A stretch of DNA of 64,000 nt from positions 10,686-74,685 of the IMG/VR virus record IMGVR_UViG_3300015608_005401. One strand, given 5' to 3'. Of this stretch, positions 37,641-63,538 are shown piece by piece. The translations under genes were made by a program, and so were the position numbers. How positions within the stretch are numbered: position 1 is the first letter of the stretch; every line of letters starts with the position of its first letter. This DNA comes from a virus (taxonomy: Duplodnaviria > Caudoviricetes). The notes beneath the pieces were generated by a model, which saw only the letters and a list, made by a program, of their open reading frames with translations, was not told where the DNA came from and did not search any database.

Positions 37641-37723
37641 TTAGGTAGATTTAAAACTTCTTTCTATATTTGTATAAAATAATACAGAAAATAACAAAAG
37701 GAACAAAAACTTTTTAATATATA
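37641..37723 (+). promoter_or_regulatory. tandem Bacteroidota sigma-type (TTAGG..TATATTTG) and TTAATATATA promoters of tRNA operon 1
   Basis: -7 box at 37665-37672; TTAATATATA at 37714-37723. Confidence 0.7.
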
Positions 37724-37729
37724 ATAACA

Positions 37730-37828
37730 ATGAGAACAAATCGCACACATAAACATTTTAGTAAATCGAATAAGTGGTTTAGAAACCAGTTCGGTACTGA
37801 AAGTGTATTGCTCTCAAATAAGATGTAA
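37730..37828 (+). CDS. attenuator leader peptide L1 (MRTNRTHKHFSKSNKWFRNQFGTESVLLSNKM)
   Basis: Codons 7-17 are 8/11 His/Lys/Phe/Trp, matching the downstream tRNAs. Confidence 0.8.
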   Translation: MRTNRTHKHFSKSNKWFRNQFGTESVLLSNKM

Positions 37829-37857
37829 CAAATCTATATTTATACAAGACAATATTC

Positions 37858-37896
37858 AAAGTCCGAACTTAAAAAAAGTTCGGACTTTTTTGTTTT
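37858..37896 (+). terminator. attenuator terminator T1
   Basis: AAAGTCCGAACTT-AAAAA-AAGTTCGGACTTT then TTTGTTTT. Confidence 0.9.
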
Positions 37897-37900
37897 ATAT

Positions 37901-37986
37901 GGTGTCGTTAGTGTCAGCGGTGAGTCTTCGGACGAGCATATGGCTCTGTGAAAGCCAAGGGACGGGTTCAAATCCCGTACGACACC
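37901..37986 (+). tRNA. tRNA-His(GTG) with an extra D-loop hairpin
   Basis: G-1:C73, loop CTGTGAA, GTC-TTCG-GAC inside the D-loop. Confidence 0.85.
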
Positions 37987-38044
37987 CCTTGATTTTTTTT
38001 GACTTTTGATTTTAATATATAAAGAAATCAAAAGTCAAAAAAAA

Positions 38045-38686
38045 ATGAAAAAAGAAAAAGTAAGGTATTACTTCTTATATAAGACTACCAATAAAATGAA
38101 TGGTAAATTTTATATAGGAGTACATAGTACAATAAAAATGAATGATGGGTATTTAGGATCCGGTAAAAGACTTAGATACTCGATGAGAAAATATGGAAAG
38201 GAGAATTTTGAAATAGATATATTAGAATTTTTCAATAGTAGAGAACTTATGTTTGAAGCTGAGAGAAACCTTGTTAATACTGATTTAATTAAAAATGAAT
38301 TATGTATGAATTTAAAAGAAGGTGGTATTGGTGGGTGGACAAAAGAACAACAAATAGAGAATGCTAATAGATCTAATATTAAAAAGAAAGAATTGAGAGA
38401 TAATAATCCAGAATGGAGAGGGCTTGAAAAGATAAGAAATTCAGAAAATATGAGAAAATCATATGAGAGAGGAGATAGAGAAAAAAAGCAACCTATGGAT
38501 TGGACTGGTAAAAGACATAAAAGGGAGACTATTCAGAAAATGAAAAAATCCAAAAATGTTGGTAAATTAAACTCTCAATATGGTACAAAGTGGATTAATA
38601 AAGATGGTATTATTAAAAAAATAAAAGAAAATGAACTTGAATATTATCTGAACAATGGATGGATTCAAGGTAGAAAAGGAACCTAA
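38045..38686 (+). CDS. GIY-YIG (Seg-like) homing endonuclease
   Basis: LYKTTNKMNGKFYIGVH..GYLGSG; HKRETIQKM NUMOD3-like; stop codon overlaps tRNA-Phe. Confidence 0.85.
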   Translation: MKKEKVRYYFLYKTTNKMNGKFYIGVHSTIKMNDGYLGSGKRLRYSMRKYGKENFEIDILEFFNSRELMFEAERNLVNTDLIKNELCMNLKEGGIGGWTKEQQIENANRSNIKKKELRDNNPEWRGLEKIRNSENMRKSYERGDREKKQPMDWTGKRHKRETIQKMKKSKNVGKLNSQYGTKWINKDGIIKKIKENELEYYLNNGWIQGRKGT

Positions 38687-38753
38687 GCTAATCAGGTGAA
38701 AGCACTGGACTGAAAATCCAGGGAGCCCGGATCGTTACCGGGAGGTTCCACCA
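38678..38753 (+). tRNA. tRNA-Phe(GAA)
   Basis: GGAACCT/AGGTTCC stem, loop CTGAAAA, encoded CCA. Confidence 0.9.
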
Positions 38754-38762
38754 AAAAAAAAT

Positions 38763-38836
38763 GGTGATTGTAGCTCAATCGGTAGAGCGCAGGTTTGTGG
38801 AGCCGAGGGTCGGGATTTCGAAATTCCTCGTTCACC
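38763..38836 (+). tRNA. tRNA-His(GTG), weak anticodon stem
   Basis: G-1:C73, loop TTGTGGA, mismatches in the anticodon stem. Confidence 0.65.
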
Positions 38837-38843
38837 CAAAAAA

Positions 38844-38913
38844 GAGGGGATAACATAATGGTAGTGTACCGGGCGGAAAACCGGTAGTGTTAGTTCGATT
38901 CTAGCTCCCTTCA
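38844..38913 (+). tRNA. Phe-like tRNA with an 8-nt anticodon loop (GCGGAAAA)
   Basis: GAGGGGA/TCCCTTC stem; D and T arms intact. Confidence 0.55.
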
Positions 38914-38921
38914 CTACAAAT

Positions 38922-39005
38922 GTGGCAGTAGCTGAGACGGTGGCGTAAGCCTGTAGCGCTTGGTTTGAAAAACCAGAGACATCGGTTCGAATCCGATCTG
39001 TCACA
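38922..39005 (+). tRNA. tRNA-Phe(GAA) with an extra D-loop hairpin
   Basis: GTGGCAG/CTGTCAC stem, loop TTGAAAA, GGC-GTAA-GCC in the D-loop. Confidence 0.8.
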
Positions 39006-39011
39006 CAAAAT

Positions 39012-39093
39012 ACAGGTACTCATTGGTGTGACCAGCCGGCTCCAACCCGGTAATTCGTAAGAGTGGCTAAGAGTTCGAGTCTCTTTACCTGTG
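39012..39093 (+). tRNA. tRNA-Trp(CCA) with a long variable arm
   Basis: ACAGGTA/TACCTGT stem, G73, loop CTCCAAC, ATTC-GTAA-GAGT variable hairpin. Confidence 0.7.
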
Positions 39094-39101
39094 CTAAAAA
39101 T

Positions 39102-39172
39102 ACATCTGTGGTGAAATGGTATCATTTTTGTCTCCAAAACAAAAGTTCTTGGTTCGAGCCCAGGCAGGTGTG
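39102..39172 (+). tRNA. tRNA-Trp(CCA)
   Basis: ACATCTG/CAGGTGT stem, G73, loop CTCCAAA. Confidence 0.88.
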
Positions 39173-39226
39173 CTAAAAAGGTATGGAGAGGTTCAACTTT
39201 TTAATATATAAAATAAAAACTTATAT

Positions 39227-39895
39227 ATGAAAATTTTAGATAACCTTGATATATCTGATATTCAGAGAAAACTGAATGAGTCTAAATCATTTAGAGAGTT
39301 TCTATTAAAAATAGGATCTTCATCTAATGGGTCTGGTTCATACAAATCTATTAAGAATCAATTAATTAAATTAGGAGTTATAATTCCTGAGTTTAATTAT
39401 GAGAATAAAAATAAAATTAGTAAAAAAATTGATGATGTTGATGTTTTTATAAAAGGTTCTTTTTATAGTAGACAAAGATTAAAAGAAAGAATTATTAAAA
39501 ATAAACTAATTGATTACAGATGTGAGGAATGTGGAAATGATGGCGATTGGAATGGTAAAAATCTAAGCTTACATCTTGAACACAAAAATGGAGTTAATGA
39601 TGATAATAGATTAGAAAATCTAACATTCTTATGTCCAAATTGTCACTCACAGACCGAAACTTATAGTGGTAAAAATAGGAAGAAAAAAGAAAAAAGAAAG
39701 TGTGAGTGTGGTAGAGAAATATTCAAAACAAGTAAAATGTGTTTAGATTGTAACTCTATAAAAAATAGAAAAGTTGAAAGACCGTCAATTGAAAAACTAA
39801 AAGAAGAAGTTGTTGAGTTTGGATATAAAGCTATTGGTAGAAAGTATGGTGTTAGTGATAACACAATTAGAAAATGGATTAAAATAAAAAAGTAA
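39227..39895 (+). CDS. HNH homing endonuclease
   Basis: CEECG..LHLEHKNGVNDDNRLENLTFLCPNCHSQT; C-terminal HTH YKAIGRKYGVSDNTIRKW. Confidence 0.88.
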   Translation: MKILDNLDISDIQRKLNESKSFREFLLKIGSSSNGSGSYKSIKNQLIKLGVIIPEFNYENKNKISKKIDDVDVFIKGSFYSRQRLKERIIKNKLIDYRCEECGNDGDWNGKNLSLHLEHKNGVNDDNRLENLTFLCPNCHSQTETYSGKNRKKKEKRKCECGREIFKTSKMCLDCNSIKNRKVERPSIEKLKEEVVEFGYKAIGRKYGVSDNTIRKWIKIKK

Positions 39896-39982
39896 AAATT
39901 AGATTAAGAAAATGAAAAGTAAGTTGAAATATAAACGCTAGGCAACGACCAATTGAGAGGGGTCGTTGCCATTAAAAACAAT

Positions 39983-40055
39983 GATTCCGTAGCTCAATTG
40001 GTGGAGCTTCCGGCTTTTAACCGGAAGGATGTGGGTTCAAGTCCCACCGGGATCA
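39983..40055 (+). tRNA. tRNA-Lys(TTT)
   Basis: Loop CTTTTAA, canonical cloverleaf. Confidence 0.92.
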
Positions 40056-49262: not shown

Positions 49263-49442
49263 ATGAAGGAAAAAATAAAAAAGAGTCAATATGAGTCTAC
49301 AAAGGCTTACACTAAAGAGTATAATAAGCTAAATATAAATGTTCAGTTAGATAGGGACCTTATTAAAAAAGTTAAAGATATCTTAGATGATAAGGAGACA
49401 ATTAAATCTTATATTGAGGATTTAATAAGAAGGTCTCTTTGA
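49263..49442 (+). CDS. ribbon-helix-helix-like regulator, 59 aa, absent from the ORF track
   Basis: KLNINVQLDRDLIKKVKDIL..KSYIEDLIRRSL. Confidence 0.6.
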   Translation: MKEKIKKSQYESTKAYTKEYNKLNINVQLDRDLIKKVKDILDDKETIKSYIEDLIRRSL

Positions 49443-49731: not shown

Positions 49732-49887
49732 GGTGGTGTACCTTCAGTATTGATTTCACTTCCCTTGAAGTATATGCACAGTACAGTAGAAACCGCACAT
49801 CGTTTAGATATTGAAAATATTATTAAACTGATTTATAACACACTCTTGAATATCCAAGAGAATCATAACTTTAAGTATAATGCTTAA
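49732..49887 (+). pseudogene. displaced second 3' end of the M42 peptidase
   Basis: GGVPSVLISLPLKYMHSTVETAHRLDIENIIKLIYNTLLNIQENHNFKYNA*, 36 of 45 residues identical from LISLP. Confidence 0.85.
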
Positions 49888-49892
49888 AAAAG

Positions 49893-49919
49893 AAAACCCA
49901 CTCAAATGAGTGGGTTTTT
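49893..49919. terminator. intrinsic terminator
   Basis: AAAACCCACTC-AAAT-GAGTGGGTTTT, nearly identical to the one at 10621. Confidence 0.85.
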
Positions 49920-49925
49920 ATATAG

Positions 49926-50954: not shown

Positions 50955-50958
50955 AATG

Positions 50959-51390: not shown

Positions 51391-51457
51391 TTATTTATAT
51401 ATTAAAACTTTTAAACAACATTGGTATATAAAATATAATTAAAAAATAAAAAATTAA

Positions 51458-52087: not shown

Positions 52088-52668
52088 GATATGACTTTAT
52101 AGAAATAGGAACATCAGATTTTGATACACTTTTACAAGAAAGTACAAATGAAATAGGTTTGTCAATTGAGCCTCTTAAAGTATATTTAGATAATCTACCA
52201 GACAAGAACAATGTTATTAAACTAAATTGTGCAATAACTGATAAAGATGGTATGGTGGATGTCTATTGGATAGACCCGGAAGATATAGATAGATATGGCT
52301 TACCTGATTGGCTAAAGGGATGTAATTCAATAATAGAACCTCACCCATCAACAGTTAAGGAATTAAAAGATAGAAATCTTGAACATATTTATAAAAAATC
52401 AGAATGTAAATGTCTAACTTGGAGTAGCATTGTTAATATTTATGATATAAAACATGTAGAGTATTTAAAAATTGACACAGAAGGACATGATTGTGTCATC
52501 ATTAACAATATTTTAGACTCTAATGTTTTATTGCCAAAAAAAATATTATTTGAAAATAATATACTTTCTGATGAAAAATATGTAAATGAAACGTTAGAAA
52601 AATTAAAAAAATATGGATACAATATCATAAATCGTAGAGATTTTGATATTTTAGTTGAAAGATTATGA
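52084..52668 (+). CDS. FkbM-like methyltransferase
   Basis: FIEIG, SIEP, YLKIDTEGHD. Confidence 0.75.
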   Translation: MRYDFIEIGTSDFDTLLQESTNEIGLSIEPLKVYLDNLPDKNNVIKLNCAITDKDGMVDVYWIDPEDIDRYGLPDWLKGCNSIIEPHPSTVKELKDRNLEHIYKKSECKCLTWSSIVNIYDIKHVEYLKIDTEGHDCVIINNILDSNVLLPKKILFENNILSDEKYVNETLEKLKKYGYNIINRRDFDILVERL

Positions 52669-53450
52669 AAGTAAATAAAATAATATTTTCCTCAGATGAT
52701 TCACATTATTTGGATTTTTGGAAAATAAACTCAGAGATAACATTAAAAAAATTAGGAATAACTCCTGTTTTATTTCATATAACAGATGAGGATAGTGATT
52801 TTTTTGAAGATGATTTTGGTTTGGTAAAAAAAATTAAAAGACTATCAAATCACTCAGATAAAGTACAAGCTCAAATTGTAAGAATGTATGCTACAAAGTA
52901 TTTTCCTGATGAAGTTTGTCTAACAAATGATATAGATATGTTTTTATTTAATAAAGATTATCTTATTAACAATCTTCAAGATATAAGTGATGATGATATG
53001 GTTATATTAAATTCCGATGCATACGATCCAGATAGACCGGAATGTATAAATGAATATGCGGGGCCGGATAGATATCCTATTTGTTACATAGCGGCTAAAG
53101 GAACTACATTTAATAAGCTACTAAACACTGATGTATCATTTCAGGAATATGTAGATAGAGTAGAATCGGTTGGCCTTGAAGGACATAATGATGAAATATA
53201 TTTTGGTAGAATGGTAAATAATCAAAGTGAAATAAATATTCACAAGGTTAAAAGAGGTTACTGTTCTAATTTTTATGTACCTCAGAGAATTGAAAAGTAT
53301 ATGTTTAATTCAAATGAGCAACTAACCTTTAGAATCGACATAAGTGGATATATTGATACATCATATTTTATTGATTGTCACTGTAAAGGATCGTATCAAG
53401 AAAATAAATACTTAATAGATAAAATTAAAAATCAAATATTAAATGATTAA
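52665..53450 (+). CDS. putative glycosyltransferase-like protein
   Basis: CLTNDIDM (DxD); located in a sugar-modification operon. Confidence 0.5.
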   Translation: MKVNKIIFSSDDSHYLDFWKINSEITLKKLGITPVLFHITDEDSDFFEDDFGLVKKIKRLSNHSDKVQAQIVRMYATKYFPDEVCLTNDIDMFLFNKDYLINNLQDISDDDMVILNSDAYDPDRPECINEYAGPDRYPICYIAAKGTTFNKLLNTDVSFQEYVDRVESVGLEGHNDEIYFGRMVNNQSEINIHKVKRGYCSNFYVPQRIEKYMFNSNEQLTFRIDISGYIDTSYFIDCHCKGSYQENKYLIDKIKNQILND

Positions 53451-54030
53451 ATGTTTAATAGGCAATGGTGGTCATGCAAGAGAAGTTATGGCTCAAATGG
53501 GAATAAATCTAACTAGATTTGTTGATGATGAGTTTTGGAAGGAAGGTGATGATAAACTATTACCAATTTCTAAGTTTGATTCGAATAAGTATATTACTAT
53601 GATTGCAGTTGGTGATTCTCAAGATAGATTTAATATTTATAAAAAACTACCAAAAGAAACTAAATATTTTACTTATATACACCCTACTGCTTTAATATTA
53701 GATGATAAAACTGAAATAGGAGAAGGCTCCTTTATTGGTGCTTATTCTATCTTAACAACAAACATAAAAATAGGAAAACACTCAATATTGAACAGAGGAA
53801 ATCAAATAGGACATGATTGTATGATAGGTGATTTTTTTAGTATGATGCCTGGATCAATAGTTTCTGGTAATGTAATAATTGGAAATAATGTTTATGTAGG
53901 TACAAACTCTTGTATAAGAGAGAAAATAAATATCTGTGATAATGTAGTAATTGGTTTATCATCTGGTGTCGTTAAAGATATTAAAGAATCAGGTGTATAT
54001 GTAGGATCTCCTGTAAAAAAAATTAAATAA
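53443..54030 (+). CDS. NeuD/PglD-like sugar O/N-acetyltransferase
   Basis: IGNGGHAREV, IHPTA, hexapeptide repeats, VGSPVKKIK. Confidence 0.88.
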   Translation: MIKCLIGNGGHAREVMAQMGINLTRFVDDEFWKEGDDKLLPISKFDSNKYITMIAVGDSQDRFNIYKKLPKETKYFTYIHPTALILDDKTEIGEGSFIGAYSILTTNIKIGKHSILNRGNQIGHDCMIGDFFSMMPGSIVSGNVIIGNNVYVGTNSCIREKINICDNVVIGLSSGVVKDIKESGVYVGSPVKKIK

Positions 54031-54032
54031 AA

Positions 54033-54764
54033 ATGAAATTAAGTGTAATTATACCATGTTATAATTTTGAAAATTATATTGAACAAGCTATATTATCCGC
54101 ATTGGCTCAAAGAACAAACTTCGAGTTTGAAGTTTTAGTTAGAGATGATAAATCAACTGATAACTCTTATAAACATATTGAAAGATATTCAGAGTTTGTT
54201 AGATTGTTAGACTCTTCTGAGAATTTAGGAGCAGCAAGAAATATAAAGACTCTAATAGATAATTGTAGAGGAGAATACATTGCTTATCTAGACGGAGATG
54301 ACTATTGGACAGACATCTACAAACTACAAAAGCAAGTTGATTATATGGATGCTAATCCTGATTGTATCATGACTTTTACTGGTCATTGGACAAAAGGTGA
54401 AGAAGTAGAAGGAGGTTACATTCCACCAGAGCCATATCTATGGTTGTGTATTCCATCTATTTACGAAAATGATGAAGTTAAAACTCATCATTTATTAGAT
54501 AGAAACCCAGCAACATTTGGTAGAGTATTTAGAAATATTAATGGTCTAATTAAAGATTGGATGCTAGATATAGTTTATTTTGATTGGGTTACCAATTATG
54601 AACTATCAAAGTTAGGAAGAATTCAATATTTGAACATCGGTGCTGGTATTTACAGAGTTCATAAAAATGGAGTTTTTAGTCTATCTGATGAAGAAACTAA
54701 AAATAGATTAACATTTGAAACTAGTGAGATTATTAAAAAAGACTATGAACGATTTATTAATTAA
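54033..54764 (+). CDS. glycosyltransferase family 2
   Basis: SVIIPCYN, DDKSTD, AYLDGDDYW..KLQKQ. Confidence 0.9.
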   Translation: MKLSVIIPCYNFENYIEQAILSALAQRTNFEFEVLVRDDKSTDNSYKHIERYSEFVRLLDSSENLGAARNIKTLIDNCRGEYIAYLDGDDYWTDIYKLQKQVDYMDANPDCIMTFTGHWTKGEEVEGGYIPPEPYLWLCIPSIYENDEVKTHHLLDRNPATFGRVFRNINGLIKDWMLDIVYFDWVTNYELSKLGRIQYLNIGAGIYRVHKNGVFSLSDEETKNRLTFETSEIIKKDYERFIN

Positions 54765-55629
54765 AATAGAATATACACCACATAGTGAAAGTAAAGATAA
54801 CTGGATACCTGATGGGTGTATAAAAGTATTAACCACAGATTTATCACAAGTAATATCAGAAGATAACTTGCCTTTAATTTTATCTGTAGAGAATATTAAA
54901 GGAGATGAAGTTTGGGGTTGTAAGTTAAATTCTTTTTGTTGGGGTGCTTATAATGAAATATGCTACAAAAAAATTAAAGTTAAAACATCAAAAGGTCTTG
55001 ACCTTATTAAATGGGAGTGGGATGTTTTTCAACATGGTGATATTTGTCACCAAATATTCCAAATTTGGGCCTTAAATAATAAAGGCTCAAAAGGTTTAGC
55101 AATTGGAACACACGATGGTACATCTGGTGAATGGGTTGGTCCAGTATTTTCTGATATATTAGAGGCAGTTTTAGTAGAACCATCAGATAAACAATATTCG
55201 GTTTTAGAGTCAATATATGAGAAAAAACCATTAGTTAAATTAGAAAAAGCTCTTGTTACTCCAAACGGTGGTGATATTGATTTTTATGAAGGTGGTAATG
55301 GAACAACTAATTCGGTAAATAGGGAACACACACTACAATACTATGATAATTTAAATGTGGTTAGATATAAATCCGTTACTCTAAGAAATTTATTAGATAA
55401 ATATCATATAGGAAATGATAAGTGGTGGTTACATTTGGATGTAGAAGGTTTAGATGATGAGTTGTTATTAACACTTGATTATTCAAATATTAACTTACCG
55501 TCTTGTTTAGTATTTGAACATGAAGGTTTAACTGAAGAAAGATCAAATAGAATACAAATTTGGTTAGATGAGAGAAGATATAGTTGTAATAAATCTGCTA
55601 GAAATACAATTTGTATATTAAATAATTAA
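54745..55629 (+). CDS. FkbM-like methyltransferase
   Basis: AIGTHDG, LVEP, WLHLDVEG, FEHE; likely start MNDLLIK. Confidence 0.7.
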   Translation: MNDLLIKIEYTPHSESKDNWIPDGCIKVLTTDLSQVISEDNLPLILSVENIKGDEVWGCKLNSFCWGAYNEICYKKIKVKTSKGLDLIKWEWDVFQHGDICHQIFQIWALNNKGSKGLAIGTHDGTSGEWVGPVFSDILEAVLVEPSDKQYSVLESIYEKKPLVKLEKALVTPNGGDIDFYEGGNGTTNSVNREHTLQYYDNLNVVRYKSVTLRNLLDKYHIGNDKWWLHLDVEGLDDELLLTLDYSNINLPSCLVFEHEGLTEERSNRIQIWLDERRYSCNKSARNTICILNN

Positions 55630-55703
55630 TATTTTTTTTATATTTGTAAAATAATTGAAAAGGGAGCTAAACTTTTTAATATATACACATACAATAAAAA
55701 CAT

Positions 55704-55775
55704 TGCGGGGTAGAGCAGAGGTAGCTCGCAAGGCTCATAACCTTGAGGCCGTTGGTTCGATTCCAACCCCCGCTA
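55704..55775 (+). tRNA. tRNA-Met(CAT), initiator-like
   Basis: 1:72 mismatch, AGAGCAG..GGTAGCTCG D region, loop CTCATAA; has its own promoters and no leader ORF. Confidence 0.85.
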
Positions 55776-55793
55776 CAAAAAAATTAAAAAAGA

Positions 55794-55825
55794 TTTGGTA
55801 GATTAAAAAAGTCTACATATCTTTG
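55794..55825 (+). promoter_or_regulatory. Bacteroidota sigma-type promoter of tRNA operon 3
   Basis: TTTGG..TATCTTTG. Confidence 0.7.
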
Positions 55826-55859
55826 TAAAAGAAATAAGAAACGAATAAAAATTATAACA

Positions 55860-55937
55860 ATGACAACTATTACTAACATAGCGTATTATTATGAGGGTGA
55901 GCAAAGCTCAAACGTCAGACTAATGTCTATGTCGTAA
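55860..55937 (+). CDS. attenuator leader peptide L3 (MTTITNIAYYYEGEQSSNVRLMSMS)
   Basis: TAT TAT TAT GAG GGT GAG core, upstream of Glu and Tyr tRNAs. Confidence 0.8.
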   Translation: MTTITNIAYYYEGEQSSNVRLMSMS

Positions 55938-55959
55938 TGGTGTCATTATGATATTAACT

Positions 55960-55996
55960 AACCCAGTCTGACTTATCAGACTGGGTTTTTTGTTTT
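55960..55996 (+). terminator. attenuator terminator T3
   Basis: AACCCAGTCTGA-CTTA-TCAGACTGGGTT then TTTTGTTTT. Confidence 0.9.
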
Positions 55997-56013
55997 AAAG
56001 TTCTTTGAAAATT

Positions 56014-56100
56014 GGGAGTATAACGTCAGCGGCATGTTAGAGCCGCCCCTGAACAAATAGACGTATAGAGGTAACTTGTGTGCAAATCCAGGTACTCCCA
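56014..56100 (+). tRNA. tRNA-like element lacking a conventional D-arm; 8-nt loop ATGTTAGA
   Basis: GGGAGTA/TACTCCC stem, GTGCAAATC T-loop-like segment, ACGTC/GACGT helix enclosing the anticodon arm. Confidence 0.45.
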
Positions 56101-56107
56101 CAAATAT

Positions 56108-56179
56108 GGTCTCGTCGACTAATGGTCAGGTCACCACCCTTTCAAGGTGTAGATGCGGGTTCGATCCCCGTCGAGACTA
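56108..56179 (+). tRNA. tRNA-Glu(TTC)
   Basis: Loop CTTTCAA, canonical cloverleaf. Confidence 0.9.
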
Positions 56180-56186
56180 CAAATAT

Positions 56187-56272
56187 GCTACGGTATGCAA
56201 ACCGGAATAAGCAACCAGACTTTCAATCTGGACATCGAAAGATGTGTGCGGGTTCGAGCCCCGTCCGTAGTA
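56187..56272 (+). tRNA. long-variable-arm tRNA with a TTC (Glu) anticodon
   Basis: GCTACGG/CCGTAGT stem, A73, CCAGA-CTTTCAA-TCTGG, ACATC-GAAA-GATGT variable arm. Confidence 0.8.
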
Positions 56273-56279
56273 CAAATTT

Positions 56280-56362
56280 GGGGATGATGTGACACAGGTA
56301 GTTACACTGGTCTGTAAAACCAGAGCCTTCGGGCGTTGTGGGTTCGAGTCCCAGCCCCACCA
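56280..56362 (+). tRNA. tRNA-Tyr(GTA); 3' side about 3 nt short
   Basis: CTGGT-CTGTAAA-ACCAG, variable arm GCC-TTCG-GGC, ends in CCA. Confidence 0.7.
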
Positions 56363-56365
56363 AAT

Positions 56366-56438
56366 GATGCCATCGACTAACGGCTGAGGTCATCACCCTC
56401 TCAAGGTGAAGATACGGGTTCGAATCCCGTTGGCATTA
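56366..56438 (+). tRNA. tRNA-Glu(CTC)
   Basis: TCACC-CTCTCAA-GGTGA. Confidence 0.9.
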
Positions 56439-56547
56439 CAAATACCTATATTAAAATGGCAAGACCTTTCGATTATAACCCAAGTGGTGCTACAATTTCA
56501 GGTTGTATTTGAAAATAATAATTTAACTACTTTAATTTATAAAAATA

Positions 56548-56609
56548 TTTGACAAGAATAAAAAAAAGTTGTATATTTGTATCAACAAAGAAAGAAAACT
56601 TAATATATA
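56548..56609 (+). promoter_or_regulatory. tandem promoters of tRNA operon 4
   Basis: TTTG..TATATTTG (56572-56579) and TTAATATATA (56600-56609). Confidence 0.7.
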
Positions 56610-56616
56610 GATTATT

Positions 56617-56697
56617 ATGACAAAAGTAAATAACATAGGAATAGCGATTATAGGAGGCGGCGCGGGAGCGTATGTCACTGGCTGGAGTATGTTGTAA
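56617..56697 (+). CDS. attenuator leader peptide L4 (MTKVNNIGIAIIGGGAGAYVTGWSML)
   Basis: 12 consecutive Ile/Gly/Ala codons, upstream of Ile, Ala and Gly tRNAs. Confidence 0.85.
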   Translation: MTKVNNIGIAIIGGGAGAYVTGWSML

Positions 56698-56722
56698 ACT
56701 TTTCTAAAAAGATATTATAACT

Positions 56723-56756
56723 AAACCCAGTCAGAAATGATTGGGTTTTTTGTTTT
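56723..56756 (+). terminator. attenuator terminator T4
   Basis: AAACCCAGTCA-GAAA-TGATTGGGTTT then TTTGTTTT. Confidence 0.9.
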
Positions 56757-56760
56757 ATAT

Positions 56761-56850
56761 TGGCGAGTAGCAGTGGTGTCTTATAAACACTATACCTGTA
56801 GCGGTAACTTGAGATAACTTCAAACATGGGTTCAAATCCCATCTCGCCAA
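56761..56850 (+). tRNA. tRNA-Ile(TAT)-like, no conventional D-arm, long variable region
   Basis: TGGCGAG/CTCGCCA stem, GGTGT-CTTATAA-ACACT, ATGGG-TTCAAAT-CCCAT. Confidence 0.65.
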
Positions 56851-56856
56851 CAAATT

Positions 56857-56930
56857 GGGCCATTGGTGAAGAAGGCTATCACACTTGGTTTGCACCCAGG
56901 AGTCACGAGTTCGAAGCTCGTATGTGTCCA
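56857..56930 (+). tRNA. tRNA-Ala(TGC)
   Basis: Loop TTTGCAC, G3:U70, one bulged base in the acceptor stem. Confidence 0.8.
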
Positions 56931-56992
56931 CAACTGAGAAAACAGTAAATCGTGAGTCAACACTAAAACCATCCCACCAGGATGTAAAACTC

Positions 56993-57067
56993 GCAACATT
57001 GGTGTTTAATGGTTTAGCACATTGCGCTTCCAACGCAAAGGTGCCTGTTCGAATCAGGTATGTTGCT
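56993..57067 (+). tRNA. tRNA-Gly(TCC)
   Basis: TTGCG-CTTCCAA-CGCAA, U73. Confidence 0.9.
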
Positions 57068-57117
57068 CTGAGTAAGGGGTGTCGAACTTTTTAATATATA
57101 ATATTAAAAGGATAGAT

Positions 57118-57864
57118 ATGTTGCACATAATTTATAAAATTACAAACCTAAAAAATGAAAAAATATACATAGGTAAACATTCATGTGAAGACATTAATGA
57201 TGAATATATGGGTAGTGGTAAACTTATAAAAAGAGCAATAAAAAAATATGGAATAGAAAATTTTAAAAAAGAAATTCTTTATACTTTCTATGACGAGATC
57301 GAAGCATATAAAATGGAAAAAAATATAGTAAATGAAGATTTTATAAAAAGAAAAGATGTATATAATGTGATAATTGGTGGGGATCCATTCGAATCAATCA
57401 ACTCAAATGTTGAACTCAGAAAGGAGAAAAATAGAAGAGCAGTCATATCGATGAATAAAATAATATGGAATGATGAAGGAGAAAATAATAAAGAAAATGT
57501 TTACAAAAGTAAACTAAAATGGGTGGGTAAAAATCCACATATAATTTCTTGGAGAAATTTATTAAAAAATAGTCTAAAAAGACTAAATACTAACAAAGGA
57601 TCATCAACAATTAATCTATTAGGATATAGCGCAGAGGATTTAAAATATCATATATCTAGTTTATTTACACCAGGAATGAGTTGGGAAAACTACGGAGAAT
57701 GGCACATCGATCATATAAAACCAGTTTGTTCATTTGATTCTAACACCCCAGTTAGTATTGTCTGTGCTTTATCTAATTTACAACCTCTATGGGCAACAAC
57801 AAGAGAAATAGATGGTATTATCTATGAGGGAAATTTAAATAAAAACAAATTTTATCAAAATTAA
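57118..57864 (+). CDS. chimeric GIY-YIG plus HNH-type endonuclease
   Basis: IIYKITNLKNEKIYIGKH..YMGSG N-terminus; MSWENYGEWHIDHIKP..LSNLQPLW C-terminus. Confidence 0.7.
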   Translation: MLHIIYKITNLKNEKIYIGKHSCEDINDEYMGSGKLIKRAIKKYGIENFKKEILYTFYDEIEAYKMEKNIVNEDFIKRKDVYNVIIGGDPFESINSNVELRKEKNRRAVISMNKIIWNDEGENNKENVYKSKLKWVGKNPHIISWRNLLKNSLKRLNTNKGSSTINLLGYSAEDLKYHISSLFTPGMSWENYGEWHIDHIKPVCSFDSNTPVSIVCALSNLQPLWATTREIDGIIYEGNLNKNKFYQN

Positions 57865-57870
57865 ATATTT

Positions 57871-58080
57871 CTATGTAGTATCCGAGTTTGTGTTTCTTGA
57901 ACCAAAATATCCACCAACAATACCAATTAGACCAGTAATTGACATTTGCAATAGCTGGATTATATCATCAATTGGTCTTTTTTCCTGTAAAGAAACCCAA
58001 AAGTCACCTAATACTATAATAGTAAGTAAAGTCATAACACCACCAACCATTATAAAAACCATTCTATCTTTACTTTTCAT
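57871..58080 (-). CDS. small two-TM membrane protein
   Basis: Two hydrophobic helices, GIVGGYFGS. Confidence 0.6.
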   Translation of the reverse strand: MKSKDRMVFIMVGGVMTLLTIIVLGDFWVSLQEKRPIDDIIQLLQMSITGLIGIVGGYFGSRNTNSDTT

Positions 58081-58699
58081 TATCTTTATTAAATATTTTT
58101 TCTAAATACATATAAATATATTTTCTATATCTATTTATTATTTTTTCATCACAGTATTTTTTAATATCATGCCATAGATGACCTGCTTGACCACCAATTC
58201 CTCTTTGTAGCTTTTCCATACCAGACTCTACACTTCTTGTTACTTTAGATAATTCACTAGCAATAGTAAATGAAAAAGCCATCACTTCTTCTTTATTTGA
58301 AAAGTAAGATTTTCTATCTAACGGACTTGGTAGTTTATAATCAATAATTCCTTTTCTTAAACTTTGTTCAGCATGAACTCTTTCGTGTCCAATAATATCT
58401 AACATAATTTCTTTGAAGTTTGGTATAAATCTAGCAGCATTTGCATCCACCAAAACAAACATTGGTTTTTTTCTGATAGGATTAAAAAGAGCAAAGAAAG
58501 GAACGCCTTGTCTTGGTGGTGCTGTTTTTTTATTTTCTTCACTTAATGAATTATAAAAATCATCATAATTAACAACATCAAAGCCATTTCTATTTCCAAA
58601 CTCAACCGCAGACTCAAAAGAGTTTACAGGAGCATTATCATCTATTTTAGAAGGTATAATAACCGCTTCAAATAATTCAAACTTTTTTAGGTATTTCAT
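58070..58699 (-). CDS. hypothetical protein, capsid-targeting-like N-terminus, HExxH motif
   Basis: MKYLKKFELFEA; IIGHERVHAEQ...EVMAFS. Confidence 0.6.
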   Translation of the reverse strand: MKYLKKFELFEAVIIPSKIDDNAPVNSFESAVEFGNRNGFDVVNYDDFYNSLSEENKKTAPPRQGVPFFALFNPIRKKPMFVLVDANAARFIPNFKEIMLDIIGHERVHAEQSLRKGIIDYKLPSPLDRKSYFSNKEEVMAFSFTIASELSKVTRSVESGMEKLQRGIGGQAGHLWHDIKKYCDEKIINRYRKYIYMYLEKIFNKDNEK

Positions 58700-58780
58700 A
58701 AATTATATATTAATTTTGTAAAATAAAAATAAACTATCGCAGAAACAAATAACATATTTATTGGTCAGTACTGGGAATCC

Positions 58781-59395
58781 TTGAATAAATTAGGACTACC
58801 ATACTATCTTTATCTTGGTGATGAACTAGTAATAGTAGTCAATATAGAAAAAAGAAAAAGGAAAAATGGTGCAAAAATAGATCAGGTTTATTATACTTTA
58901 GAAGATGGTACAGTAAAACATGCTTCGTTCTTTAAAAAAGTAGATATTAAGTTAATTAAAAGAGATTTTATACTAAATAATTATTGTAGTGATAAAAATC
59001 TTAAATTAACTATTGGTAGAACTGAATTAAAACCAGAGTCAAATAAAGAAAAGATTTGGTCAGATTTAAGATATGAGTTCTTTTCTCAATTCGACTTTCC
59101 TATTATGACTTGCCATCATTTAGATGATTGTGTTGAGACATATTTATTTTCTTGCCTACGAGGATTTCAATCTGTTATTCCTTATTCAAAAGCTAATATA
59201 ATTCGACCTTTTTTATTAAATGAAAAGTCCGTCTTTGAAAGATGGTGTAAACAAAAATCGGTTCCATTCATAAAAGATGAATCTAATGATTGTTTAGATT
59301 ATTCAAGAAACAGAATTAGACATAAAATTGTACCGGAGGCTTTACTTGTAAATCCTGGTTTGAAAACAGTTGTTAAAAAAATGATTAAATTATAA
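58781..59395 (+). pseudogene. tilS: TilS (tRNA-Ile lysidine synthetase) C-terminal part fused to an unrelated N-terminus
   Basis: LRYEFF, CHHLDDCVETYLF, IIRPFL, DESN..YSRNRIRH present; SGGxDS PP-loop absent. Confidence 0.7.
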
Positions 59396-60051
59396 TGGAG
59401 TTATTTCACTTTGATATAGAAACGGCTGGTCAATATAAAGACTATGACTCACTTTTAGATAGTGATGAAAGAGGTGCTAGACTTTTTTCATCTAAATATG
59501 AGAAGATGGGTTGGTCAGATAAGTACAAAGATATAAATGAGGCTTATCAAGAAAATGCTGGTATTATTTCTACTTACGGTAGAATTGTTTGTATTTCTTT
59601 TGGTTATGAACTAAACGGAGAAAAACACATAAGATCTTTTTATGGCGATGATGAAAGAGATATTGTTGATTCATTTAATAACTTATTAAAGAAAATAGAA
59701 ACAAAAATCTTTAGTTTATCTGGCTTTAGAATTAATCACTTTGATATTCCTTGGGTTCTTCATAAACTTCACAAGTATGAAATTGAACCGGCTAATATGA
59801 TTTATGTATATGATAAAAAGCCTTGGGATATGAGAATTGTTGATATGTCTGATGATTGGAAACAAAAATTTGCTTGGGCATTTTCATTTGACGAAATGTG
59901 TTATGAATTAGGTGTAAAATCACCAAAAGATAACATGAATGGATCAGACGTACATAAAGCTTATTGGTCTGGTAAAATTGAAGCAATAAAAACATACTGT
60001 GAAAAAGATGTTAGTTCATCAATTGATGCTTCTAAAAAGTTGTACAAATAA
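59395..60051 (+). CDS. DnaQ/PolB-like 3'-5' exonuclease
   Basis: HFDIETAG (ExoI), NHFDIPW (ExoII), YCEKDV (ExoIII). Confidence 0.85.
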   Translation: MELFHFDIETAGQYKDYDSLLDSDERGARLFSSKYEKMGWSDKYKDINEAYQENAGIISTYGRIVCISFGYELNGEKHIRSFYGDDERDIVDSFNNLLKKIETKIFSLSGFRINHFDIPWVLHKLHKYEIEPANMIYVYDKKPWDMRIVDMSDDWKQKFAWAFSFDEMCYELGVKSPKDNMNGSDVHKAYWSGKIEAIKTYCEKDVSSSIDASKKLYK

Positions 60052-60097
60052 TAATTTTTCCTTATCTTTGTCATGTTAATCACTAAAACAAAAAAAT

Positions 60098-60238
60098 ATG
60101 GCAAAGATTAAAGAAATCTACATGGAAATTCAAGAGAAACTTGGTGAAGAAGTTGAAATTACTGAGGAGATATTTCATCAACATCTAGTTGAAAAAGGAA
60201 TTATAAAAGAAACTAAAAACTCTGATGAAGAAGAGTAA
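60098..60238 (+). CDS. 46-aa acidic protein, absent from the ORF track
   Basis: MAKIKEIYMEIQEKLGEEV..; TATCTTTG promoter before it and a terminator after it. Confidence 0.55.
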   Translation: MAKIKEIYMEIQEKLGEEVEITEEIFHQHLVEKGIIKETKNSDEEE

Positions 60239-60242
60239 TTAA

Positions 60243-60271
60243 GACCCATCGAAAGATGGGTTTTTTGTTTT
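60243..60271 (+). terminator. intrinsic terminator
   Basis: GACCCATC-GAAA-GATGGGTT then TTTTGTTTT. Confidence 0.85.
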
Positions 60272-60319
60272 AAAGAGCCGTTGTATATACAAATATATAC
60301 TTGTAAAAATAGGTATAAA

Positions 60320-60508
60320 ATGGCAGCACCAAAAGACAAAATGTTTTCACTACGAATACCTGAAAAGCTACTAGAAGAGTATAGGTTATTTTGTGAGGAA
60401 AATTCTATTAATATTTCTAAAAGATTAAGAAAGTTTATTGAGAGAGATTTAGAATCTTGGAGAGCAAGAAAGCTTCAACAACAAAAAAATAATAATTCTC
60501 AGTCTTAA
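60320..60508 (+). CDS. ribbon-helix-helix regulator
   Basis: MAAPKDKMFSLRIPEKLLEEYRLFCEENSINISKRLRKFIE. Confidence 0.7.
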   Translation: MAAPKDKMFSLRIPEKLLEEYRLFCEENSINISKRLRKFIERDLESWRARKLQQQKNNNSQS

Positions 60509-60518
60509 TATATAGATT

Positions 60519-61073
60519 ATGATAAAAAATTACTCACAATTTATAAAAGAAGATTATTCAGATATTAAATCTGATTTAATTAAGTATATAGATGATAATA
60601 AAAATGATATCGAATCTAAAGGTTTAGAATTTAATGAACTAAAAGATGATATGACATTTGTCATAGAAAAACTTGATTCTGACTTTTTAAAAAAAATAAA
60701 CCTAGAACTGTCAAGTATAGATGTTGATAATAAAGTTGAATTTCAACATAAATTTGAAGAGGTTATTAAATCAATTATAGAAGAATTAGGCAAATCACAA
60801 TTAAATGAAGGTTTAGTTTCATTTTTTAAATCAATATGGAATGAAATTAAAAAAGCAGTTAAATGGATATCTGATAGAATATACACAATTTCTGGATATC
60901 TAACAATTGGATTGGCTGGTTTGCTATTTATAATCAATCAATGGGGTCCTGGACTATATATGCCATATGAATTTGGTAATGTGGCTTTGAACACTGTATT
61001 AGCAATTGGAATTGCTGTACTAAAATACGGTCAAAAAAATGACAATTATATAAAAAACATAAGTGAAATATGA
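60519..61073 (+). CDS. membrane protein with a T4-IP-like N-terminus
   Basis: MIKNYSQFIKED; internal LNEGL repeat of the xxE motif; two C-terminal TM helices. Confidence 0.65.
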   Translation: MIKNYSQFIKEDYSDIKSDLIKYIDDNKNDIESKGLEFNELKDDMTFVIEKLDSDFLKKINLELSSIDVDNKVEFQHKFEEVIKSIIEELGKSQLNEGLVSFFKSIWNEIKKAVKWISDRIYTISGYLTIGLAGLLFIINQWGPGLYMPYEFGNVALNTVLAIGIAVLKYGQKNDNYIKNISEI

Positions 61074-62802
61074 AACACATTAGAAACTTTGAAAAATTTA
61101 AAGAGAAAAGAAATCAAGTAATATCCGAAAAGGCAACTAATCACTACTATAAATTAGGTAAATCTTGTAATAAATCTATTTTTGAAATGGAATTGTTATC
61201 TGAGGGATATTCAGTTGAATTTGTTAATTCTGTTAATGAAAGTTTACAATTTTCTAAAATCGACAATAAAATAATTGATTGTGTTTGGGAATACCTTCAA
61301 GAAGGAACTGAAACTAAATTAGATTTACTAACAGAAGAGTTAACTGTTTTTGGTAAACAACTTCCTACTCTTGGTGATATGTATAAAGGAGTAACTAATG
61401 TTATAGATAAAGGTATTGAAATAGGTAAGTCTGCTATTGGTAGTTTTAAGGATTTCATTAAAAATATTGGAAATATTGTTAAAAATCTTTTCTCTAAAAT
61501 TAAAGCTTTCTTTGCTAAAGTTTGGGAAGCATTTAAACCTAAATTAACTGCTGCTATGGGTGTTATTAAAAAAGCTGTAGGTGGTGGTTCAACTGATAAA
61601 ATGAAAGGTGCTATTGACGCAATGGCTAGTGATGGTGGACAAAAAGAAATTGGTACTTTATCTGAAGATCTTTCTAAAGTTTGTTCAAAATTTTCAACTG
61701 GAGATGTTGGTAATATGTCAGAAGAATCAGCAAAACATTTACAAGATGAAGCTGGTGAATACCAAGGTATCGAAGGTGATGCTGATATTGAAAAATTAAT
61801 GTCAGAATCATTAGAAAGAAAAGGATCGGTTGAAAAGATATATTATTCAATAAAAGGTTTCTTATTTGAAGGTGGTAAAATTGATGAATTAGATGCTATC
61901 TTTGAAGCAGAAGAAACAAAGATTGAATTAAAAGAAGGTGATAAAGTAACATATACTAATAAAGAAGGTAAAGAAGTAACTAAATCTATAATTAGAATTG
62001 ATGGTGATAACGCTGTATTCAAAAGTGATAAAGATGGTAGTGAATTTACAAAGCCAGTATCTGATTTGAAAAAATCAGAAGGTGCTGGTAAGAAAATATT
62101 ATCTGGATTTGTTGGTGAAGAACCAGAGAAAAAAGGAGTATTTGGTTGGCTAGTTGAAGCTGTTGGATCTTTGTATTTAATCCACTTGTTAAACTTAAAG
62201 AAACACTTATAAAAGGTGGTACTAATGGAATATGTATGATGATTTCAGCTATGGCTAGAGGATTAAAAAATATGGCTAAATACATTGTTATTGGTGTTAT
62301 AGCTGGATTAGTTTATCACATAGTACATGGTCTTATGACACTTACTGGTGGTGGTCACGGTGAAGGTCACGGTGAGAAAGGACATGAAGCTGGGTCTGAG
62401 GCAGCAGAAGCTGGAGCTGAGGCGGCTAAAGGTGGAGTAGCTGATGCTGCTGCGAAAGCTACTTCAAAAATTAACTTAGCAAAAGAGTCTTTCGGTATAA
62501 ATGAATCTGAAGCAGCATTGGCTGTTGATATGAATAAAACAACATCATATACAAATGGAATTTTTGATATTGCTAAAAAGGTTGCTTTACCAGTTGTTGG
62601 AGGTCTTTTAATGGCGGCATTATCACACTTTTTCCCAATAGTACATACAATATTAGAAGCTATATTAGTTTCAATTGGTATATTTGAGTTAGTTGGTGCT
62701 GTTTGTACAATAGAGTCAATTAAAAGTAAGAACTTAAAAATTTGTACACTTCAACACAGTGCTCACCATTTCATAGAAGGTGGTGTAGGTGGTGGACACT
62801 AA
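61070..62802 (+). CDS. large capsid-targeting-like protein with a frameshift near 62170
   Basis: MKHIRNFEKFKE; the frame after WLVEAVG continues as FVFNPLVKLKETLIKGG into ORF 62236-62802. Confidence 0.55.
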
Positions 62803-62931
62803 TTAAAAATAACTTACTAAATGCTAATAAATTTGGTGAATTGAAAATCTCACCGTATATTTGTAAAACAATTGGGAAAGGCAACGATTTAGATACAACT
62901 CTCAATTATTTTTACAAATTTTAGAAAAAAA

Positions 62932-63004
62932 TTAGGTAGATTTAAAACTTTTATCTATATTTGTATAAAATAAGTCAAAAGGGACAAAAAACTTTTAATA
63001 TATA
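62932..63004 (+). promoter_or_regulatory. tandem promoters of tRNA operon 5
   Basis: TTAGG..TATATTTG (62956-62963) and TTAATATATA (62995-63004). Confidence 0.7.
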
Positions 63005-63009
63005 CTACA

Positions 63010-63117
63010 ATGACAACAATGAATTTAAATATGAACATGAATCTAACAGTGGTGCTTAATACGTTATGTATTAGACGCTCTGAGGGCTTCGTCATATCTA
63101 AACGATTTGTTGGCTAA
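63010..63117 (+). CDS. attenuator leader peptide L5 (MTTMNLNMNMNLTVVLNTLCIRRSEGFVISKRFVG)
   Basis: Five Asn codons upstream of two tRNA-Asn genes; ATT and AGA codons match the Ile(GAT) and Arg(TCT) genes. Confidence 0.8.
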   Translation: MTTMNLNMNMNLTVVLNTLCIRRSEGFVISKRFVG

Positions 63118-63147
63118 TGTGAAACAAATTATATAAAGGATAAATCG

Positions 63148-63180
63148 AAACCCTCAGACAAAAAATCTGAGGGTTTTTTT
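63148..63180 (+). terminator. attenuator terminator T5
   Basis: AAACCCTCAGA-CAAAAAA-TCTGAGGGTTT then TTTT. Confidence 0.9.
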
Positions 63181-63207
63181 ATGTCCCTATAAAAATAAAA
63201 AATATCT

Positions 63208-63281
63208 TCCTCGGTAGCTCAGTTGGTTAGAGCATCTGACTGTTAATCAGAGGGTCGCTGGTTCGAGTCCAGCCCGGGGAG
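63208..63281 (+). tRNA. tRNA-Asn(GTT)
   Basis: TCTGA-CTGTTAA-TCAGA, G73. Confidence 0.93.
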
Positions 63282-63291
63282 CAAAAATAAA

Positions 63292-63376
63292 CGGTAGGTA
63301 CCCGAGCGGTCTTCAGGGACTAGTCTGATACACTAGGTGAGAAATCACGACGTGGGTTCAAATCCCACCCTACCGA
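63292..63376 (+). tRNA. long-variable-arm tRNA with a GAT (Ile) anticodon
   Basis: CGGTAGG/CCTACCG stem, A73, CTAGT-CTGATAC-ACTAG, GTGA-GAAA-TCAC variable arm. Confidence 0.8.
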
Positions 63377-63382
63377 CAACAT

Positions 63383-63454
63383 TCACTGGTAGCTCAGAGG
63401 CAGAGCAGGCGCCTGTTAAGCGTTAGGTCGGGATATCGTAATTCCCCCAGTGAG
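63383..63454 (+). tRNA. tRNA-Asn(GTT)
   Basis: Loop CTGTTAA, G73, atypical T-loop ATCGTAA. Confidence 0.8.
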
Positions 63455-63459
63455 CAAAT

Positions 63460-63538
63460 GCCCCAGTAACCGAGGTCGCCTTCTAAGCGACTAATCGTAA
63501 CGGAGTTGAAAATGTAGGTTCGAATCCTACTTGGGGTA
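63460..63538 (+). tRNA. tRNA-Arg(TCT)-like, no conventional D-arm, long variable region
   Basis: GCCCCAG/TTGGGGT stem, GTCGC-CTTCTAA-GCGAC, GTAGG-TTCGAAT-CCTAC. Confidence 0.65.

Follow-up and report, generated by a model that had tools for sequence, protein, structure and literature searches.

Why should a phage set a short open reading frame (ORF) and a strong intrinsic terminator between its promoters and its transfer RNA (tRNA) genes? This arrangement occurs five times in the DNA analyzed here, a 64-kb window (the whole stretch studied, positions 10,686 to 74,685) of the 74,685-base IMG/VR contig IMGVR_UViG_3300015608_005401, which is about 30% G+C and comes from a virus of the Caudoviricetes. 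The parts of the five units and their order, the match between the codons of each ORF and the tRNA genes behind it, the specific complementarity of each ORF to the 5′ arm of its own terminator, and the conservation of these features in related genomes are direct observations. A preliminary description of the sequence had read the five loci as leader-peptide attenuators, and this reading was supported on the sequence level. We consider it likely that the units are ribosome-mediated (leader-peptide) transcription attenuators, the output of which is the sensed tRNAs themselves.

The nearest records by BLASTN are LR745206.1 (634,780 bases) and LR756502.1 (642,428 bases), both from uncultured huge phages, and all five genomes larger than 634 kb fall within the Mahaphage clade and are predicted to replicate in Bacteroidetes (PMC7162821). 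Because its closest relatives belong to this size class, the contig is a fragment of the much larger genome of an uncultured phage. Its five units are also kept in LR745206.1, LR756502.1, and G001, a 385-kb IMG/VR genome, all three of which possess two extra units that would fall past the end of this contig: one with a leader containing ...NPQPQDQDP... ahead of a Pro/Asp cluster and one with the leader MTTTQQIQQQQINQTD ahead of a Gln cluster. Together, the seven units of the related full genomes account for 19 of 20 amino acids, and the tRNAs detected in these genomes do not include one for Cys.

Five units of common architecture

All five units follow one order: a Bacteroidetes-type promoter, usually the motif TTAATATATA, an ATG-initiated frame of 24 to 35 codons, an intrinsic terminator, and tRNA genes. 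A promoter had been proposed upstream of each leader, and a motif scan found the element TAnnTTTG, which we take to be the Bacteroidetes −7 promoter consensus, about 42 to 65 nt upstream of the ATG in all five units, and TTAATATATA 5 to 7 nt upstream of the ATG in four, unit 3 being without an exact copy. The contig contains 27 copies of TTAATATATA, nearly always 4 to 25 nt ahead of a gene-opening ATG (e.g., at 41264, 50003, and 60505 and, on the minus strand, at 58713 and 36454); a spacing of 4 to 8 nt is likewise seen at the contig's long protein ORFs on both strands, and one copy lies 18 nt upstream of a tRNA-Met that has no ORF at all. Because of this equal spacing at many long ORFs and the copy before the ORF-less tRNA-Met, TTAATATATA is most simply a phage promoter, probably a phage-specific one yielding leaderless or short-leader RNAs.

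The strong hairpin and U-tract described after each ORF were found in all units: a G+C-rich hairpin of 11 to 14 bp lies 22 to 30 nt after the ORF and is followed by a T-run that mostly ends in TTTTTTGTTTTA, and in every homologue the distance from stop codon to terminator is 19 to 35 nt. The tRNA genes had been placed within about 30 nt of the terminator. That is true of four units, with a gap of about 6 to 25 nt between the T-run and the next tRNA, and not of unit 3, in which the first confidently called tRNA starts 120 nt past the terminator. Because so short a gap leaves no room for a promoter, the tRNAs of the four units can only be made through terminator read-through.

tRNAs were called with ARAGORN at its default and at a relaxed threshold and with an Rfam scan. 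Default ARAGORN reports 19 tRNAs across the five-unit region; relaxed ARAGORN or Rfam adds His 37911, His 38764, Trp 39012, Ser 42381, Ser 42651, Tyr 56283, Ile(TAT) 56761, and one long-arm tRNA. The cluster contents agree with those listed in the preliminary description, several of the tRNAs being found only by these more permissive searches. Because the default settings miss at least seven cluster tRNAs, the match tests below were run with a strict and with a relaxed tRNA list.

The units, all on the plus strand, have the following composition, the five ORFs being those first described. In unit 1, the promoter region (37665 to 37723) contains TAnnTTTG at 37665 to 37672 and TTAATATATA at 37714 to 37723, 6 nt before the ATG. 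Leader ORF 1 (37730 to 37828; 32 codons), which is kept open in LR745206.1, LR756502.1, and G001, has the core HKHFSKSNKWF at codons 7 to 17, in which 8 of 11 residues are His, Lys, Phe, or Trp. Its terminator (37858 to 37895) has a 13-bp stem and a 5-nt loop followed by TTTTTTGTTTTA, with a hairpin energy of −17 kcal/mol, and cluster 1 (37911 to 40217) encodes His, Phe, His, Phe-like, Phe, Trp, Trp, Lys(TTT), Lys(CTT), and Lys(TTT). Unit 2 begins with a promoter region at 42119 to 42156 (−7 element 42119 to 42126, TTAATATATA 42147 to 42156). Its 24-codon leader (42162 to 42236) contains 10 Ser codons (TCG, TCA, AGT) and 2 Arg codons (CGC, CGA), and the terminator (42260 to 42297) is followed by cluster 2 (42303 to 42829) with Arg(ACG), Ser(TGA), Ser(TGA), Ser(GCT), and Ser(GGA). 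Unit 3 comprises a −7 element (55818 to 55825), a 25-codon leader with the core YYYEGE (55860 to 55937), a terminator (55960 to 55995), and cluster 3 (56108 to 56439), which encodes Glu(TTC), Glu(TTC), Tyr(GTA), and Glu(CTC).

The promoter region of unit 4 (56572 to 56609; −7 element 56572 to 56579, TTAATATATA 56600 to 56609) precedes a 26-codon leader (56617 to 56697) in which codons 7 to 18 (IGIAIIGGGAGA) are exclusively Ile, Gly, and Ala; a terminator at 56723 to 56756 and cluster 4 (56761 to 57068) with Ile(TAT), Ala(TGC), and Gly(TCC) follow. Ile(TAT) at 56761 scores 34.8 bits against the Rfam tRNA model and its anticodon was read by eye; the LR745206.1 homologue is called Ile(TAT). Unit 5 has a promoter region at 62956 to 63004 (−7 element 62956 to 62963, TTAATATATA 62995 to 63004), a 35-codon leader (63010 to 63117) in which codons 2 to 23 are nearly all Asn, Leu, Met, Thr, Val, Ile, or Arg, with one Cys, and a terminator at 63148 to 63184. 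Cluster 5 (63208 to 63538) holds Asn(GTT), a long-arm GAT tRNA, Asn(GTT), and a long-arm TCT tRNA and is cut off by the contig end about 460 nt past its last tRNA; in relatives it goes on with Leu, Val, Ile, Thr, Met, and Arg.

The leaders had been thought to lack obvious similarity to one another and were counted as independent copies. Neither statement survived comparison: the leaders share the promoter block, a M-[T/K/R/N]-T start, and terminators of the form AAACCC...GGGTTTTTT, and independence was therefore overstated. Given this common promoter block, start context, and terminator type, the five units are probably paralogues, diverged duplicates of one ancestral unit rather than independent inventions.

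Leader codons, tRNA clusters, and conservation of the frame

That each leader is built from the amino acids of its own cluster was examined by scoring the leader codons served by a cluster and comparing the true leader-cluster assignment with all permutations. In the window, the true pairing scores above every other of the 120 possible in all four ways of counting, at the amino-acid and the anticodon level with the strict and the relaxed tRNA list. Shuffled pairings in related huge phages, a check put forward in the preliminary description, gave the same answer: in LR745206.1, LR756502.1, and G001, the true seven-unit pairing is the unique maximum of 5040 in each genome at both levels, which, because the three genomes are related, amounts to one strong result seen three times. 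Measured against the contig proteome, the enrichment of individual leaders is pronounced for unit 2 (P = 2.5e-6) and unit 4 (P = 8e-5) and moderate for unit 1. The leader of the truncated unit 5 correctly foretells the Leu, Val, Ile, Thr, Met, and Arg genes found in the clusters of its relatives.

Codon choice follows the anticodons as well. In the 55 long ORFs of the contig, 83% of Arg codons are AGA and all CGN codons together make up 12%; Arg in the unit 2 leader is encoded by CGC and CGA, ahead of tRNA-Arg(ACG), and Arg in the unit 5 leader by AGA in 30 of 30 homologues, with tRNA-Arg(TCT) in the cluster. Ile is mainly ATA in unit 4, before tRNA-Ile(TAT), and ATT in unit 5, before Ile(GAT). 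Ala in unit 4 is GCG three times, although this codon provides 7% of the contig's Ala codons, and it is decoded by the downstream Ala(TGC).

Leader homologues are open in every relative. For unit 5, a metagenome scan (39 loci) together with the three relatives in hand gave 37 leaders, 29 of them distinct, and the frame is open in all 37, with a length of 34 to 38 codons. The ATG frame has two to four times as many cognate triplets as either of its alternatives (frames 0/+1/+2: 72/32/21, 65/26/14, and 59/26/17), and those other frames contain 14 to 26 stops over seven leaders. Gaps in the sensing part of the ORF are multiples of three, and gaps of any length occur in the spacer after the stop codon. 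Every replacement in the sensing part of unit 5 stays within the set of its cluster, Asn/Arg/Leu/Val/Ile/Thr/Met (M/I, N/T, M/L/I, N/V, T/N/R, N/L, and N/I), some of them needing two or three base changes; past the antiterminator, no such restriction is seen (P, H, S, C, D, F, K, E, G). A pattern search with the promoter block matched only one viral contig. Two further contigs matched by a degenerate unit-5 pattern, G006 and G007, have no tRNAs and were taken as chance matches.

The arrangement recurs, with different tRNA groupings, in two independent and more distant lineages of huge phages. In a complete 325-kb phage genome (G008), the leader MHQPQQPQHPQ precedes Gln, Pro, His, Pro, His, Gln, and Phe tRNAs, the leader LLDILSLVLEAMLVVDALLWADEDYY precedes Asp, Glu, Val, Leu, Ala, Trp, and Tyr, and a leader rich in Thr, Asn, Ile, Ser, Cys, and Gly precedes Thr, Cys, Asn, Met, Ile, Ser, and Gly, with a stop-to-terminator spacing of 21 to 24 nt. 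In the 735-kb phage LR756501.1, Met, Gln, Ile(TAT), and Glu tRNAs follow the leader IINMIQEQMQQIQ, which has an 8-bp antiterminator; in LR756504.1, no unit was detected in the 40-kb stretch around a tRNA-Met. His is grouped with Phe, Trp, and Lys in the window and with Gln and Pro in G008, and the leader shifts accordingly; judged from the sequences, this regrouping is the strongest argument for a functional tie between leader and cluster. Huge phages of Bacteroidota probably carry a full tRNA regulon, in which multivalent attenuators split nearly all amino acids among themselves and each gates its own block.

A predicted switch, competing explanations, and known systems

A segment just past the sensing codons, at about codons 18 to 26, had been described as complementary to the 5′ arm of the terminator. 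This held in all five units: a segment of 10 to 16 nt, beginning 1 to 14 nt past the end of the cognate run, pairs with the unit's own terminator arm at −12.8 to −14.9 kcal/mol. The complementarity is specific: when leaders and terminator arms are paired in all 120 ways in the window, the cognate set comes first, and of the 5040 possible sets in each of the three relatives, only 2, 10, and 2 do as well or better. In unit 1, the antiterminator (37787 to 37799, codons 20 to 24) pairs with 37859 to 37870 in the terminator 5′ arm or, alternatively, with leader codons 10 to 14 in a 1:2 hairpin, and its duplex of −12.8 kcal/mol is reached by 4 of 1000 shuffles. Duplex prediction places the antiterminators of units 2, 4, and 5 at 42214 to 42229, 56677 to 56689, and 63078 to 63087; in unit 3, 55913 to 55922 contains an 8-bp perfect complement to 55964 to 55973. 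Consensus folding did not recover the antiterminator of units 1 and 3, the spacers of which align poorly, and single-sequence folds and duplex energies were therefore used.

In the predicted folds, leaving out the 3′ arm brings out the antiterminator, and folding a leader by itself pairs segment 2 with the sensing codons, as seen for each of the five units in the window. Unit 1 and the Gln unit of the relatives, in which segment 2 includes the stop codon, show this 1:2 hairpin most clearly; consensus folding retains the pairing in units 1 and 7, and only in unit 1 is it stable against 2:3. The predicted layout resembles the four segments of trp, with 1:2, 2:3, and 3:4 alternatives. When a ribosome footprint, assumed to cover 15 nt 5′ and 11 nt 3′ of the A-site codon, was stepped along by codon, the antiterminator was present in all five units with the A site on the cognate run and gone past the end of the run.

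These features suggest the following mechanism. Transcription would start from the host-type promoter and later probably also from the TTAATATATA phage promoter, giving a nearly leaderless RNA, and a ribosome would translate the short frame. Segment 1 would be the run of codons read by the downstream tRNAs; segment 2, the antiterminator at about codons 18 to 26, could take either segment 1 or segment 3 as its partner; segments 3 and 4 would be the 5′ and 3′ arms of the terminator. With fast decoding, the ribosome would cover segment 2 on its way toward the stop codon, the 3:4 terminator would form, and the tRNA genes would stay off. Were any cognate aminoacyl-tRNA scarce, the ribosome would stall in segment 1, segments 2 and 3 would pair, and polymerase would read into the tRNA genes. 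Translation of the frames, increased read-through on stalling, and this direction of the switch are what we infer from the sequences; each unit would then be a negative-feedback loop on its own tRNA supply, the sensed quantity being the supply of aminoacyl-tRNA. Candidate triggers are loss of host tRNAs to defense nucleases, the A+T-rich codon usage of the phage relative to the host pool, and starvation, and the purpose may be to replace tRNAs destroyed by host defenses.

Several observations weigh against the attenuator reading or limit its support. Besides the non-independence of the seven-unit permutation results, whole-ORF enrichment is weak on its own for unit 3 (P = 0.15) and the truncated unit 5 (P = 0.11). 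Single duplexes are only modestly above those of shuffled leaders (P 0.003 to 0.09; reached by 3 to 43 of 1000 in the window), and that of unit 4 in G001 is no better than shuffles (500 of 1000). Covariation of the antiterminator and terminator arms, another proposed check, yielded one compensatory pair per family: an A-U/G-C pair in unit 2 and, in unit 5, a pair that is C-G in 13, U-A in 9, and U-G in 8 of 30 sequences and never unpaired. This evidence is thin, the helix columns being mostly invariant, and the covariation counts mostly did not exceed their shuffle controls. The footprint size in the ribosome simulation is an assumption. In units 1 and 5, the ORF continues for 27 to 28 nt beyond the antiterminator, so that a ribosome at the stop codon would leave it unmasked; the simulation shows the antiterminator of unit 5 forming again, so that termination there must depend on timing or on the 1:2 hairpin. 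Finally, the ribosome-free equilibrium fold of units 2 to 5 predicts read-through, unlike the superattenuation of trp.

The last of these points is also what a general gate would predict, in which the same hardware reports ribosome loading or movement, as a measure of translation capacity or infection stage, rather than particular tRNAs: general loss of translation would open all units together, and promoters, M-[T/K/R/N]-T start context, and terminator type are common to all units. The leaders of such a gate need not be written in the codons of their own clusters, yet the true pairing ranks first among 5040, the codon families track the anticodons, and the leaders change with cluster content in other lineages. 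We therefore regard a general gate as unlikely. The codon match could also be used without translation if the leader RNA bound tRNAs by codon-anticodon pairing in the manner of a T-box, the frame being incidental. Output and proposed ligand would then both be tRNAs, and the choice between terminator and antiterminator is the core of a T-box too. An Rfam scan of the whole window on both strands (E ≤ 1) gave no T-box match, however, and the T-box riboswitch (RF00230) was rejected as a candidate. The cognate triplets are specific to one frame that runs from ATG to stop at a fixed distance from the terminator, the spacing between the phage motif and the ATG equals that of real genes, and synonymous and within-set replacements are tolerated; moreover, as many as 25 cognate codons, for as many as seven amino acids, occur in a single leader, compared with one specifier in a T-box. 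A sensor made of RNA alone is thus very improbable.

It could be argued instead that leaders and clusters are unrelated neighbors, the ORFs being small genes or chance frames with leaky terminators and the tRNAs being transcribed by read-through or by a terminator-insensitive polymerase. Short ORFs are indeed abundant at 30% G+C (27 kb contain 304 of 20 aa or longer), and termination by the hairpins in vivo is a prediction. Both the codon match and the antiterminator complementarity beat their permutation controls, however, the unit 5 frame is open in the 37 homologues (29 distinct), and the arrangement recurs in distant phages with other amino-acid groupings. Chance short ORFs were rejected on the permutation and frame tests, and mere adjacency is in our judgment highly unlikely.

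If the units are attenuators, their closest structural counterparts are those of enterobacteria (trpL, hisL, pheL, leuL, thrL, ilvL/ivbL), which have a short frame rich in regulatory codons, 1:2, 2:3, and 3:4 alternatives, and an intrinsic terminator ahead of the regulated genes; several amino acids per leader are also known there, from thr (Thr, Ile) and ilvGMEDA (Ile, Leu, Val). The enterobacterial systems control biosynthetic enzymes, whereas the phage units would control tRNA genes and feed back on the sensed molecule; the phage units belong to a phage of Bacteroidota, number five here and seven in relatives, and cover nearly all amino acids, and most of them place the stop codon after segment 2 rather than before it. 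The Rfam leader families (Leu_leader, Phe_leader, and others) have no match at the five units, and a known family was rejected on this ground; sub-threshold Leu_leader and Phe_leader matches lie only elsewhere in the window (10588 to 10696, 15394 to 15514, and 49864 to 49921). Nearest in purpose is the pheST-himA attenuator of E. coli with its pheM leader, a leader-peptide system with an output that is part of the translation machinery and works on the tRNA being sensed; unlike the phage units, it controls a synthetase rather than a tRNA gene, senses one amino acid, and is chromosomal. The T-box riboswitches of Firmicutes likewise respond to the state of one specific tRNA by forming a terminator or an antiterminator, but they do so without translation, through direct binding of that tRNA by a specifier codon and the T-box sequence, whereas here the frame runs from ATG to stop.

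Phage tRNAs can replace those cleaved by the anticodon nucleases of the host (PrrC, PARIS) or removed in its tRNA turnover, and large phage-borne tRNA sets sustain translation during infection. Reports on such rescue cover which tRNAs are carried and how cleavage is escaped, and none was found that describes a transcriptional sensor. That no attenuator with the sensed tRNA as its output had been described was borne out by a full-text search of the openly accessible literature, in which no account of tRNA genes controlled through a leader peptide was found for phages or bacteria. The paper reporting these huge phages makes no mention of attenuation of tRNA genes (PMC7162821).

Neighboring genes and biological meaning

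Cluster 1 is split by ORFs at 38046 to 38686 and 39227 to 39895, which we read as GIY-YIG-like and HNH-like homing endonucleases. Further putative homing-endonuclease-like ORFs of these types lie in or next to the clusters at 40298 to 41281, 57079 to 57864, and 63599 to 64000; each of these ORFs has its own TTAATATATA, and the set varies among related genomes. They were named from their translations by eye and from the annotation of BLASTN neighbors. The Phe-like tRNA of cluster 1 (38844 to 38914) has an 8-nt anticodon loop, given as "ggaa" by ARAGORN, and is possibly degenerate or a +1 frameshift reader.

Ahead of the first Glu tRNA of cluster 3, a tRNA-like stretch (55990 to 56107) has acceptor-like ends, GGGAGTA...TACTCCC, flanking about 65 nt. 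Neither Rfam nor ARAGORN calls a tRNA there; its counterpart is a tRNA-Tyr in LR745206.1 and a mere short remnant in LR756502.1. Long variable arms, giving lengths of 80 to 90 nt, occur on many tRNAs for class-I-type amino acids (63292 to 63377, 63460 to 63538, 56187 to 56273, and L001 13294 to 13559), among them GAT (Ile), TCT (Arg), an 87-nt Glu(TTC), and Lys tRNAs of 84 to 87 nt in relatives. Such arms normally mark Leu, Ser, and Tyr tRNAs, and the identity of the long-arm tRNAs is doubtful for that reason.

Two tRNA loci of the window are organized differently. The tRNA-Met(CAT) at 55704 to 55776 (plus strand; 55639 to 55776 with its promoters) has both promoter elements and neither leader nor terminator. 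With positions 1 and 72 unpaired, as is typical of initiator tRNAs, it appears initiator-like, and the lack of an attenuator would make sense because elongating ribosomes cannot sense initiator tRNA. At 10410 to 10650, a tRNA-Ser(TGA) and a second tRNA-like stretch lie between a repeat-rich ORF (10002 to 10409) and a terminator (10620 to 10650). No leader frame was found at this locus; an attenuator therefore does not stand ahead of every phage tRNA. Elsewhere, a 495-aa ORF on the minus strand (43266 to 44753) has long collagen-like Gly-Ser/Thr triplet repeats (GTSGTSGTSG...) and is perhaps a fiber protein, and the motif scan found a TAnnTTTG at 36485, inside 36461 to 36885 and just 5′ of the tRNA region.

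Leader-peptide attenuation is a textbook mechanism, known, as far as we found, only for amino-acid biosynthesis and a few synthetase and transport genes. In this virus, the genes under its control appear to be those for tRNAs. No earlier attenuation system would then have the sensed tRNA as its output, and the present one would provide tRNA homeostasis and possibly an automatic answer to tRNA-cleaving host defenses. It would explain how phages with dozens of tRNAs avoid needless production and would offer a direct read-out of the codons that become limiting during infection. Leader composition predicting the downstream tRNAs would serve as an annotation rule, and the leaders would supply synthetic biology with compact sensors of how fast the codons of particular amino acids are decoded. 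When phages need tRNAs of their own, and why, would become directly testable.

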